From the sequence record NC_041906.1: 64,000 nt of DNA. One strand, 5' to 3'. The DNA comes from Escherichia phage EC1-UPM. The notes beneath the pieces were generated by a model that worked only from the letters and a program-made list of their open reading frames with translations, had not been told where the DNA came from and ran no database searches. Positions within the stretch are counted from its first letter, which is position 1; each line of letters opens with the position of its first letter. A program made the position numbers and the translations under genes. Shown piece after piece: positions 32,812-34,943 of this stretch.

Positions 32812-34045
32812 TCTGGTAGGTGGCTCAGAAGCTGCTGCTATTTGTGGTAGTGTTCATAATTTTGATGCTATTGCTTATCAGGATTCTGGACGTGTCGGCT
32901 CCATACATAGCATTTATCATCACTGTGCTTATACTTTGGAAACTCAGTGATAAAAACGGTGGTGACAAGCCGCCAGACTAACAACAACAACAACCGAACC
33001 AGTGGATTGGAATACTCTCCTCAGTCCATTGGTTCAATCTAAGCTAAGCGGAAAAGTTAGCTTTTTCTTGGGTGTAGAACCTGTTGAAGGAAACAAAAAA
33101 TCTCACATTGAATAGTTAATATCGTGAAGGGTTCTGTTAGAATTCTTTGAGATAGGAACTCCTATCATAACCTTTCTTAACTTAATCATTGCCGTATGGC
33201 ACTGACGCTAGGGGTGGCCCCCCATCCGTCAGCTAGACTATTTTAAGAATGGGTTATCTCAGAAAATGTAAAGCAACATTCGGGTTAATCAATGGCCTCT
33301 CCCTATAGGGGCCATTTCTGAATCTTAGGCTATATCCCAAAGGTTAATATCTTTGGGATAAGGCTTCAGATCCCTTATCAAACTAACCGCTCAATGTTGA
33401 GCATTTTAATCACATAAGCCCCTATATGGGCTGGGTTAAATGTCGGATAGCATAGCTACTTACAGCATCGAATTGTTAGGTCTTACATGTAAACTAATTC
33501 ATAGGGTAAAGGGAGTCTTGTCCTCCCTCCCCTATTATGACATCCTATCAATGAGTACACTTCAAGTGGTAGGCCTGCCGCTCTTGAAATTCATCTGCAA
33601 AGCTGGGAGTGTACTCTTTGATAGTTTTCGTAAGCGATTATGCGGTTTTTTAGAAACGAACCAATAACATAAATGCAAACGATGATGTTGTTTTGATGGC
33701 GGCGTAATAGCCTGTAAGTCAGCAAGGTCTTCCGATTCCTTGTAAACAAATTCGGCGCAGTGGCCCGCTGTGATTAATAATGGGCACACAACAGGTAAGG
33801 GCATTGACTACACCAGATAAGTCTTCGGATGTAATGGTAAAACCATGCAGTGCTCTTTCCATTGTGACCAGCAAGACCATACAACACGCGCAATAATCTT
33901 AACCGTAGCGCATGTTGCTGGGGCTGGATGTGGGTTAACACATGAGAGTGAATTGGTGCGACACTCCACAATACGCACCAAGTCCAGACAATATCTGAGT
34001 GACTATAAAAACAGATGGAGCCAGGTGGAATCCCTGGCAATTATT

Positions 34046-34111
34046 TCCGGTGTAGGTACTAGTGTCGTGCACGGCATGAGTGTTCTGGTTCGAGTCCAGA
34101 CGCCGGAACCA
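34046..34111 (+). ncRNA. tRNA-like element with acceptor stem, T-arm and 3' CCA (non-canonical length)
   Basis: TCCGGTG pairs with CGCCGGA; T-arm TCTGG-TTCGAGT-CCAGA; ends ACCA; only 31 nt between acceptor and T-stem. Confidence 0.3.
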
Positions 34112-34113
34112 AT

Positions 34114-34237
34114 TACCAGTTGCACGAGATGGCTTGACATGTTCAAGTTTGGGCTAAGTGTGACACCGCTAGATTGGAGGGCTGCTGCGGTAAGCTATAG
34201 ACTCCAACCGGAGGTTCGAATCCTTCACTGGTAACCA
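34114..34237 (+). ncRNA. tRNA-like element with acceptor stem, T-arm and 3' CCA (124 nt, too long for a standard tRNA)
   Basis: TACCAGT pairs with ACTGGTA; T-arm GGAGG-TTCGAAT-CCTTC; ends ACCA; starts 2 nt after previous CCA. Confidence 0.25.
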
Positions 34238-34854
34238 ATTCAAAGTAGCATTGCACTAATCCATTCTGGAGTTCAAAGGCCAATCTTGGAGCAGTGCTAC
34301 TATGAATTAGAAGAATTATGACGGGTCTGGTGAAGTAGATGGGGTTCGATTCCCTCCGGTGGGTAAAACCACTAGCGTGCTTGGTGTACGAATAAGACTT
34401 AATACTGGTGGTTCGATTCCATCCCCCGTTATCCGAAGTCGCCAGGTACTTATGGCAAACGGGTAGTAACGAACTAGTCATTCGTCAAACGCCCACCCTA
34501 TTATGAGTCAGCAAGAACGCCTTCACTTAAACTTAAACAAAAAAGCTTAACGCAATAATTATGTAGGGGTATGTAAGGATTGCGAAGAAGGAGCCAGTTA
34601 AAGTCTGGCATGACTCACCTATTTAGCAGTAACATAGTCCTGATTGCATTGCACTCTAAAGACAACACTGGTAAGACAGTCCAGTGGCTGCTATTGTATT
34701 GTTATTCCCCTCGACGGGAATTTCGCTAGTGAAGGTAACACTTAAAAATCCAAACCCACGTCTTACTACTATCGGGCTATCAACCCACAGTCGCTTAACA
34801 TACTAGCGGTAGTAGTTTGACGGCCTAGCCTCGTTAGCTGCGTTAAAGCTACTA

Positions 34855-34882
34855 AGTCCCTCTTCGGAGGGACTTTTTTATT
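34855..34882 (+). terminator. rho-independent terminator closing the noncoding region
   Basis: AGTCCCTC-TTCG-GAGGGACT followed by TTTTTTATTT. Confidence 0.65.
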
Positions 34883-34943
34883 TGAGTATTAATAAGCGTA
34901 ATCATGTTTAAGCACACACTAAAACCACTTTATGAGGCTAATA

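Follow-up and report, generated by a model that had tools for sequence, protein, structure and literature searches.

A tmRNA-type tag template without a tRNA-like domain in a putative noncoding transcription unit of Escherichia phage EC1-UPM and unrelated virulent phages

What is encoded by a region of 2.1 kb that is poor in open reading frames (ORFs), dense in hairpins and located at positions 32812–34930 of a DNA stretch from Escherichia phage EC1-UPM (NC_041906.1)? The stretch (64 000 nucleotides; referred to here as the window) comes from the genome of a G7C-like coliphage (Gamaleyavirus, N4-type). An earlier note on this DNA had proposed one or more structured noncoding RNAs (ncRNAs), a tRNA cluster or a replication origin. 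The first proposal is borne out by a promoter-to-terminator unit with covariation-supported structures. The note had overlooked the main content of the region, which is a tag template of the transfer-messenger RNA (tmRNA) type accompanied by pseudoknots. This segment (33624–33786; the core) is a tmRNA-like mRNA domain that was previously unannotated. We are highly confident that it belongs to a real, conserved, tmRNA-derived structured RNA within an ncRNA operon. The features of the locus are collected in Table 1.

The tag frame is entered in a context typical of tmRNA. AUAAAU precedes the GCA resume codon; across 30 diverged sequences its AAAT never varies, and conservation of the A and T in front of it reaches at least 90%. 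In tmRNA, A86 and U85 set the frame, with A86 as the main determinant (PMC2481249), and the linker upstream of the phage resume codon carries the equivalents of both. The tag encoded by the window (for comparison, that of E. coli is ANDENYALAA) is replaced in relatives by synonymous variants or by other tag-like peptides, such as ANEEAYLMVA. Among viral contigs sampled by the sequence of pseudoknot B, and therefore independently of the tag, all 66 elements retain an intact ten-codon frame and together they specify 18 different peptides. In a permissive Rfam search the permuted-tmRNA and beta-tmRNA models align below threshold at 33585–33756 (33.7 bits, compared with a threshold of 47).

The pattern of substitutions in this frame was analysed on a minimum spanning tree over 30 distinct tag sequences, part of the sample having been picked by tag pattern. 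Of 38 single-nucleotide codon changes in the tag frame, 21 are synonymous (23% expected; p = 2e-5); the corresponding counts in the other two frames are 6 of 43 and 7 of 41. The tag evolves like a translated frame, and we infer that it is used as a template. Ordinary initiation in the tag frame was considered and rejected, as an in-frame UAG lies eight codons upstream and neither a start codon nor a Shine–Dalgarno sequence occurs between this UAG and the resume codon. A frame starting from the AUG in AAAUGC was also rejected, since it yields peptides of variable length (5–12 residues).

The stop codons lie in a hairpin and two pseudoknots, A and B, follow. Their conservation was assessed in an alignment of 30 non-redundant cores with less than 94% identity (alignment A2). 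For pseudoknot A, 98.7% and 93.3% of the cells are paired, with changes on both sides in seven of nine pairs; the figures for pseudoknot B are 94.7% and 85%, with six of nine pairs changed on both sides. The stop hairpin and the two pseudoknots together have 90.6% of cells paired, compared with 27–43% when the partners are slid, and 16 of 25 pairs show changes on both sides. Compensatory cells, which are distributed over six helices, number 112 compared with 31 ± 6 in shuffles (0 of 500 as high). No pseudoknot corresponding to PK1, the pseudoknot before the tag in tmRNA, was found in the core, and its position is taken by the leader described below.

The core type is without a tRNA-like domain (TLD). 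The checks that the earlier note had proposed with Rfam and ARAGORN returned no tRNA or tmRNA in the window and nothing at curated Rfam thresholds, and ARAGORN likewise found no tmRNA in 12 related loci. In the complete 47.7 kb genome of the T1-like phage HC8A it detected tRNA-Ile only and no TLD unit; a scan of HC8A with a T-arm regular expression was set aside, as it did not recover the known tRNA-Ile. In several phages the core has a promoter or an ORF as its immediate neighbour: a σ70 promoter ends about 12 nt before the core in T1-like phages and Sf16, where it replaces the long hairpin found at the corresponding position of the window, and in CS01 and phiA050 a protein ORF starts right after the second pseudoknot.

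The position of PK1 is occupied by a leader that is probably complementary, judged from sequence and predicted energies, to the tmRNA of the host. The ∼40–48 nt before the tag pair with tmRNA nt 54/56–105, the same segment for every enterobacterial variant (the E. coli sequence used was checked against annotated ssrA). The target at nt 56–105 takes in the 3′ portion of PK1, an A-rich upstream stretch that includes U85/A86, the resume codon (nt 90) and the first five tag codons. The duplex of the window leader has 34 bp and an energy of −39.2 kcal/mol, compared with −23.1 ± 2.6 kcal/mol for dinucleotide shuffles (0 of 300 as good), and that of Cronobacter phage CS01 has 38 bp and −48.4 kcal/mol. 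After correction for composition, the leader is the single outlier of 89 windows across the locus (z = −7.8; the next is −3.9), and for three leader variants the ssrA window ranks first of 1994 natural 100-nt windows from 50 kb of E. coli DNA. All 30 of 30 variants favour the host segment over their own RNA (−38.0 versus −15.8 kcal/mol), and the complementarity distinguishes TLD-less elements from TLD-bearing phage tmRNAs (−39.6 ± 7.5 versus −18.7 ± 4.7 kcal/mol; p = 7e-16). At the level of individual blocks, leader GUUUUCGU(C) is the exact complement of host GACGAAAAC, and GCGACU is that of AGUCGC. A published antisense primer for the same tmRNA region reads almost like the leader. The leader block GTTTTCGT was also considered as an analogue of the tmRNA D-loop, i.e. 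as a remnant of a 5′ TLD, and this was rejected because it is the exact complement of host tag codons 3–5.

The core is widely distributed. A distant BLAST search found the tag-proximal part of 33530–33800 in 414 phage records, with nearly all matches falling under no annotation. The carriers include N4-like phages, T1-like siphoviruses, Ackermannviridae, the FelixO1-like Mooglevirus, Cronobacter phage CS01 and an Aeromonas phage, so that at least five unrelated families of virulent phages retain the core at 70–98% identity. In Sf16 it fills the gap between tRNA-Ile and tRNA-Arg. Among ∼100 000 bacterial species genomes the leader pattern occurs in only four records, which may be prophages or co-assembled phage contigs: Pseudocitrobacter faecalis (L174), Pantoea agglomerans (L175; a complete chromosome), a fragment of a metagenome-assembled genome from Bacillota (L176) and an 83 kb contig of Escherichia sp. 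(L177).

The nearest known relatives of the core are the two-piece (permuted) tmRNAs (Rfam RF04321 and RF01849–51). A scan of IMG/VR for the tag pattern retrieved at least 120 contigs, about 45 of which received ARAGORN calls of permuted tmRNAs. Closer inspection of three (L024, L045 and L054) showed an acceptor piece in each, with a G3:U70 pair in L024 and L054. These genes and the core have in common the resume context (U)AAAU-GCA-AAC-GA, a ten-codon tag of the form A-N-D/E-x-x-hydrophobic-x-x-A/V-A whose stop sits in a hairpin, and, following the tag, an H-type pseudoknot that has UAACAGAAU as its linker; the linker of pseudoknot A is shared with genuine permuted phage tmRNAs. The core differs in lacking an acceptor piece, a 5′ acceptor strand with G3:U70, a D-loop analogue and PK1, in the complementarity of its pre-tag region to host tmRNA and in escaping detection by ARAGORN and at Rfam thresholds. 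Our best explanation is that a two-piece tmRNA carried by a phage contributed the coding piece from which the core, together with the adjacent stem S, is derived. The remaining permuted tmRNA calls include two contigs of ∼160 kb (L026 and L080) and one of 177 kb (L068), and the tags of permuted viral calls include ANDNSYRMVA, ANDSRFLMVA, ANDERFLMAA and ANDSVYALAA. The calls in L013 and L108 were discarded as chance pairings of the tag with neighbouring tRNAs that involve no real TLDs. Phage-borne two-piece tmRNAs look commoner than the literature suggests.

How could a tag template operate without a TLD? In the mechanism that we propose, the operon transcript would presumably be cut into separate RNAs at tRNA-like units and hairpins, and the core would have lost its TLD and gained a 5′ leader complementary to host tmRNA. 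Pairing would start between the 5′ end of the leader and nt 80–105 of host tmRNA, where the resume region and the first codons are exposed, and would then spread into PK1 (nt 56–79). The resulting duplex would mask the host resume codon and the frame-setting U85/A86 and, ∼11 nt beyond it, would offer the phage UA-containing upstream motif, resume codon, ten-codon tag, stop hairpin and pseudoknots. The 11-nt spacing is close to the distance from PK1 to the resume codon in E. coli tmRNA. Ribosomes rescued by host Ala-tmRNA and SmpB would then receive a phage peptide (…LMAA or …LAVA) in place of …ALAA, or host tagging would at least be blocked. Docking on host tmRNA is the most economical reading because the tag behaves as translated, ordinary initiation is implausible and the loss of the TLD coincides with a host-matching leader. 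We regard the full mechanism, with either substitution of the tag or a block of tagging, as plausible but tentative, since we infer that the RNA is transcribed and processed, pairs in vivo and serves as a template. Its most specific form, in which a ‘template-only’ tmRNA pairs across the host resume codon and PK1 and borrows the alanyl-tRNA-like domain and SmpB, giving a host–phage chimeric tmRNA that adds tags ending in …LMAA, …LAVA or …LMVA, is possible and rather more doubtful.

Several observations weigh against docking and tag substitution. Tag codons 7–10 lie in the stop hairpin, so that RNA structure accounts for some of the codon pattern, and codons 3–6 alone give 7 synonymous changes out of 20 (p = 0.16). 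GC-rich windows give raw duplex energies similar to that of the leader; this measure was non-discriminating and was replaced by the composition-corrected z-scores. The thermodynamic controls are strong and the alignment-based ones weak: Smith–Waterman alignment with linear gap costs, which penalises loops, is marginal (2 of 300 to 31 of 300 shuffles as good), with 14 of 300 for the window, 9 of 300 for HC8A and 2 of 300 for CS01 (p of about 0.007–0.05), and the genome-scaled BLAST E value is 0.1–0.3 for the best leader class, with the leader of the window outside the top DNA-level matches. Substitutions in the leader keep pairing no better than slid controls, and the leaders of Sf16, L017, L034 and L098 pair only partly with E. 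coli tmRNA. The host tmRNA variants AAAACAGCCGCAAACGACGA and AAAATAGCGGCAAACGACGA, predicted from two divergent leaders, had no match in IMG/VR, which contains few host genes. Finally, there is no precedent for a tag template provided in trans through base pairing.

The same complementarity would equally suit a pure antisense inhibitor or sponge, in which the leader blocks the host resume region and stops tagging or marks tmRNA for RNase III, and the tag part serves stability or mimicry and is not translated. U85/A86 and the resume codon, which must be accessible for function, lie within the duplex, and a ‘half-tmRNA’ is known from phage DS6A, whose RNA consists of a TLD only. An inhibitor of this kind leaves unexplained the preserved frame with its stops, U(−5)A(−4), the degron-like C-terminus and the synonymous excess across the 66 elements and 18 peptides, and an antisense RNA of 40 nt alone would suffice; we consider it unlikely. 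The core could also be a protein decoy, its mRNA domain and pseudoknots titrating the SmpB tail, ribosomal protein S1 or RNase R with no base pairing involved. The upstream motif, a proposed ligand (S1 or SmpB) site, is retained, and so is the architecture of the pseudoknots. A decoy leaves unaccounted for both the coding-like constraint on the tag and the restriction of the antisense leader to the TLD-less class, and we judge it improbable. No more probable, in our estimate, is a non-functional relic consisting of a decaying tmRNA gene fragment and an inverted ssrA fragment that hitch-hike in a tRNA/homing-endonuclease cassette region. The mosaic locus, the HNH endonuclease gene in phage ZQ2 and the absence of visible pairing preservation among leader substitutions would agree with such a history. 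The uniformly intact frames, the compensatory covariation in six helices, the persistence in unrelated virulent families and the promoter that the core has of its own in some of them speak against it.

The ncRNA region also contains three tRNA-like RNAs with CCA ends (units a, b and c/d; Table 1), located 340–750 nt downstream of the core, and one of them might supply the TLD in trans to a multi-piece tmRNA encoded entirely by the phage. Genuine two-piece tmRNAs are the relatives of the core and, in a Klebsiella relative with a different order of the units with respect to the core, unit b directly follows pseudoknot B. No unit, however, has G3:U70, the identity element for alanine; their complementarity to the leader shows no excess (z = −0.7, 0.0 and −1.7); and they are confined to about 100 N4-like records, compared with 414 for the core, with none in the HC8A genome. 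A multi-piece tmRNA is, in our view, a slim prospect. The folds of the units contain neither a D-arm nor an anticodon loop, and none is called by ARAGORN (0 genes in the window) or at the Rfam threshold; unit c/d has a weak match to tRNA-Sec (16.8 bits) and otherwise no Rfam tRNA match is found up to E = 10. Compensatory changes in acceptor, T and internal stems span phages of E. coli and Klebsiella. In unit a they affect the central hairpin (phage IME11; L110) and the T-stem (a Klebsiella phage; L173). Unit b varies in the acceptor (TATCAGT/ACTGATA and TACTGGT/ACCAGTA) and the T-stem (GGAGG/CCTTC versus GGGGG/CCCTC), and unit c/d in the acceptor (GGTGGG/CCCACT) and an internal hairpin (GTGG/CCAC versus GTAG/CTAC). 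The units probably act as signals for processing by RNase P/Z. The locus resembles phage tRNA arrays with stable RNAs (T4- and FelixO1-type) in context and probably in processing, as illustrated by the position of the Sf16 core between tRNA genes, and differs in that units a, b and c/d have an acceptor stem, T-arm and CCA but lack both the D-arm and the anticodon arm.

A conventional tRNA gene cluster or a replication origin is hardly credible: four perfect GGTTCGAnTCC T-loops occur in the window and relatives have real tRNAs at the locus, yet no tRNA in the window passes ARAGORN or Rfam, no iterons or other origin-type repeats are present (the T-loop motif is the sole repeat family, apart from two chance-level pairs) and a promoter and a terminator bracket one transcription unit. 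The tRNA cluster that the earlier note had proposed therefore applies to the relatives, and the window itself has just the three tRNA-like RNAs. The tRNAs of the relatives are Ile(AAU), which scores 62–65 bits with Rfam, and Asn, Pro and Gln in the Klebsiella relative. The tRNA-Ile with its unusual anticodon AAU accompanies the core in N4-like and T1-like phages and is absent from the window, where the insertion site used by the relatives, with or without a second tRNA-like gene, corresponds to about 34614/34615. A 27-nt direct repeat with 70% identity (GTAAC…GCATTGCACT) is located after unit b at 34231–34257 and again 398 nt downstream at 34629–34655, near this site, and is possibly a cassette junction or recombination scar. 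Another insertion, of 72 nt, is present in L002, L003, L005 and L006 (at about 2302–2391) just 5′ of the long hairpin and absent from the window (33544/33545). ARAGORN reads it as tRNA-Ala(CGC); it falls below the Rfam tRNA model at E < 0.01, has no G3:U70 and is probably another tRNA-like cassette.

The promoter and terminator in Table 1 delimit ∼1.7 kb (33116–34882) as one putative rightward ncRNA transcription unit, starting at about 33150 as predicted from the promoter sequence. The strong plus-strand terminator that the earlier note had placed at the end of the region is recovered by the scan and carries a terminator annotation in PhAPEC5 and G7C. The description of the region as hairpin-dense also holds, with structure above chance in shuffled folds and 13 terminator-like hairpins compared with 2.8 expected. 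The individual elements listed in that note were found again: the CTGACG…CGTCAG stem-loop (33203–33232), the palindrome CCCTATAGGG (33301–33310), the stem ATCCCAAAG/CTTTGGGAT (about 33334–33360), the nested GAGTACAC/TTCAAG hairpin (33545–33624) and the triplet tract, as (AAC)5 at 32980–32994; GATAGGA/TCCTATC is present at 33151–33166, about 10 nt to the left of where it had been placed. Most of these hairpins belong to the block 33150–33530, which is confined to 75 N4-like records. A part of it (33351–33508) occurs at about 82% identity, unannotated, in ∼77 kb podoviruses of another group (ECBP2, SU7, NC-B, EK010 and IME267). The long hairpin 33545–33624, which shows compensatory changes in PhAPEC5 (CCATCGGGGAGTACA/TGTACTCCCCGATGG), probably sets the 5′ end of the core RNA or shields it. 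On the other side of the core, stem S is found after pseudoknot B or directly before the leader, depending on the phage, and behaves like an insertion hotspot or cassette boundary; its sequence is conserved across phage families with very different inserts (L009 Magnus, L020, L021, L047, L060 and L075), which include T-arm-like hairpins in Magnus and L075. Just 5′ of unit a is a conserved hairpin GCCAGG-TGGAATC-CCTGGC (34020–34038) that resembles a T-arm, with a stem of 6 bp and a loop of 7 nt; a T-rich stretch comes next, and the hairpin is terminator-like by scan. Within the downstream conserved block, the segment 34618–34760 has 78% identity to phage N4 (NC_008720, 33435–33576), is also present in other Enquatrovirinae and is the sole part of the locus that reaches N4. 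Other sub-threshold Rfam matches (miRNA, CRISPR-DR, STnc100 and Phe leader) were dismissed as mere generic hairpins and the terminator.

The statement that the region has no credible ORF stands for 33116–34882, where no ORF of more than 25 amino acids has support, and fails at the 5′ edge, where ∼300 nt (32820–33115) contain two conserved small ORFs. The first is probably, from its conservation, a real small gene outside the ncRNA unit. The second is a shortened form of a longer small gene that relatives have at the same place, according to columns 1–110 of alignment A1 and annotations. The PHROG families of both have no assigned function. The gene downstream of the region (34932–35324) had been named gp49 and is instead the counterpart of N4 gp48, by the annotation of PhAPEC5; the virion RNA polymerase ORF (3618 amino acids) follows on the minus strand at 35685–46541. 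Matches to the region occur in 232 phage records, the best with 87–95% identity in patchy pieces. In six relatives the equivalent gap, between gp46/gp47-like genes and the gp48 homologue, measures 2.1–2.6 kb and is annotated, if at all, with inconsistent tRNAs (Ile, Ala, Cys, Thr, Xle, ‘OTHER’ and ‘Pseudo’). The locus is a pronounced mosaic in which cassettes are gained, lost and reordered among relatives. An HNH homing endonuclease gene is annotated within the equivalent region of Escherichia phage vB_EcoP-ZQ2 (42802–44991), which fits the behaviour of mosaic cassettes.

Table 1. Features of the ncRNA locus and its 5′ flank (window coordinates, except for the last row)
Feature	Position	Strand	Evidence or remarks
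Small ORF, 53 codons, GTG start, hydrophobic product	32820–32981	+	Open in 9/9 relatives (tblastn); phrog_19025, E = 4e-10
Short ORF, 37 codons	33002–33115	+	phrog_14773, E = 2e-6
Putative σ70-type promoter TTAATA-16-TAGAAT with TG	33116–33143	+	Promoter scan; block invariant across 7 phages
Conserved, strongly structured block	33150–33530	+	Fold −123.3 versus −94.8 ± 4.9 kcal/mol for shuffles; z = −5.8; 0/100
Long hairpin CTATCAATGAGTACAC … GTGTACTCTTTGATAG, interior variable, abuts leader	33545–33624	+	Fold z = −4.2 (33535–33632)
Core leader	33624–33663	+	Probably complementary to E. coli tmRNA nt 56–105
Single-stranded linker ATAACATAAAT	33664–33674	+	Counterparts of E. coli U85 and A86 at U(−5) and A(−4) relative to the resume codon
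Tag frame GCA AAC GAT GAT GTT GTT TTG ATG GCG GCG TAA TAG	33675–33710	+	ANDDVVLMAA; 10 codons and two stops
Hairpin around tag codons 7–10 and stop, analogue of tmRNA helix 5	33693–33722	+	Covariation in helices 1–2, CUGA/UCAG versus CUGG/CCAG
Pseudoknot A	33723–33755	+	S1 CAAGG/CCTTG (33723–27 with 33738–42); S2 CCGA/TCGG (33732–35 with 33752–55)
Pseudoknot B, conserved linker GATTAATAA	33756–33785	+	S1 CGCAG/CTGTG (33756–60 with 33768–72); S2 GCCC/GGGC (33763–66 with 33782–85)
Conserved long stem S, CACAACAGGTAAGGGCATTG … CAGTGCTCTTTCCATTGTG, variable insert	33787–33866	+	Fold z = −2.2
Unit a, acceptor TCCGGTG/CGCCGGA, one long hairpin, T-arm with GGTTCGAGTCC, then A-CCA	34046–34111	+	Fold
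Unit b, 124 nt, acceptor TACCAGT/ACTGGTA, several internal hairpins, T-arm, then A-CCA	34114–34237	+	Covariation
Unit c/d, ∼111 nt, acceptor GACGGG/CCCGTT, two T-loop-type hairpins; ACCA end in relatives	34320–34430	+	Covariation
Conserved noncoding block	34431–34853	+	Alignment A1; 83 records
Intrinsic terminator, 9-bp stem AAGTCCCTC/GAGGGACTT, then T-run	34854–34882	+	Terminator scan; compensatory variants in relatives
tRNA-Ile(AAU) in relatives	L001 3372–3445; L003 3463–3536; L004 3499–3572; L005 3464–3537; L007 1991–2064		

A tmRNA has so far been defined by the joint presence of a domain resembling tRNA and one resembling mRNA, and survey pipelines detect it through the former. The known phage tmRNAs were all found via the TLD: those of the Bxz1 group, Bacillus phage G and DS6A, and 79 sequences in a 2025 database (PMC4131195; PMC11915505). 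DS6A illustrates that a phage can keep ‘half’ a tmRNA, and a similar TLD-only molecule inhibits host tmRNA (PMC4131195; PMC11915505). The core is likewise phage-borne and derived from trans-translation, and represents the opposite half, an mRNA-like domain without a TLD but with an antisense leader, in virulent enterobacterial phages outside the surveys cited. We found no earlier description of the core, its tags or an antisense to tmRNA in the literature or in tmRNA-database supplements. Because surveys rely on the TLD, hundreds of sequenced phages carry the template-only form without its having been noticed or annotated.

Phages and prophages also encode anti-sRNA ‘sponges’ that pair in trans with host noncoding RNAs. 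The core resembles these in having a 5′ complementary segment aimed at an abundant host regulatory or stable RNA; it differs in its would-be target, tmRNA, and in the fusion of the antisense segment to a template for a replacement tag, a combination for which we found no case in the literature. If docking on host tmRNA is true, the core would be without precedent both as an antisense regulator of tmRNA and as a tag template given in trans. It would place the fate of truncated proteins and the recycling of ribosomes under phage control, which would be relevant where host defences or phage nucleases make non-stop mRNAs, and would provide a natural design for reprogramming tmRNA tagging by a small RNA. 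Even if the core acts as an inhibitor only, trans-translation would be a recurrent phage target. The three CCA-ending tRNA-like RNAs constitute a second set of uncharacterised phage RNAs, and the carriers of the core include therapeutic candidates with E. coli, Klebsiella, Salmonella and Shigella as hosts.

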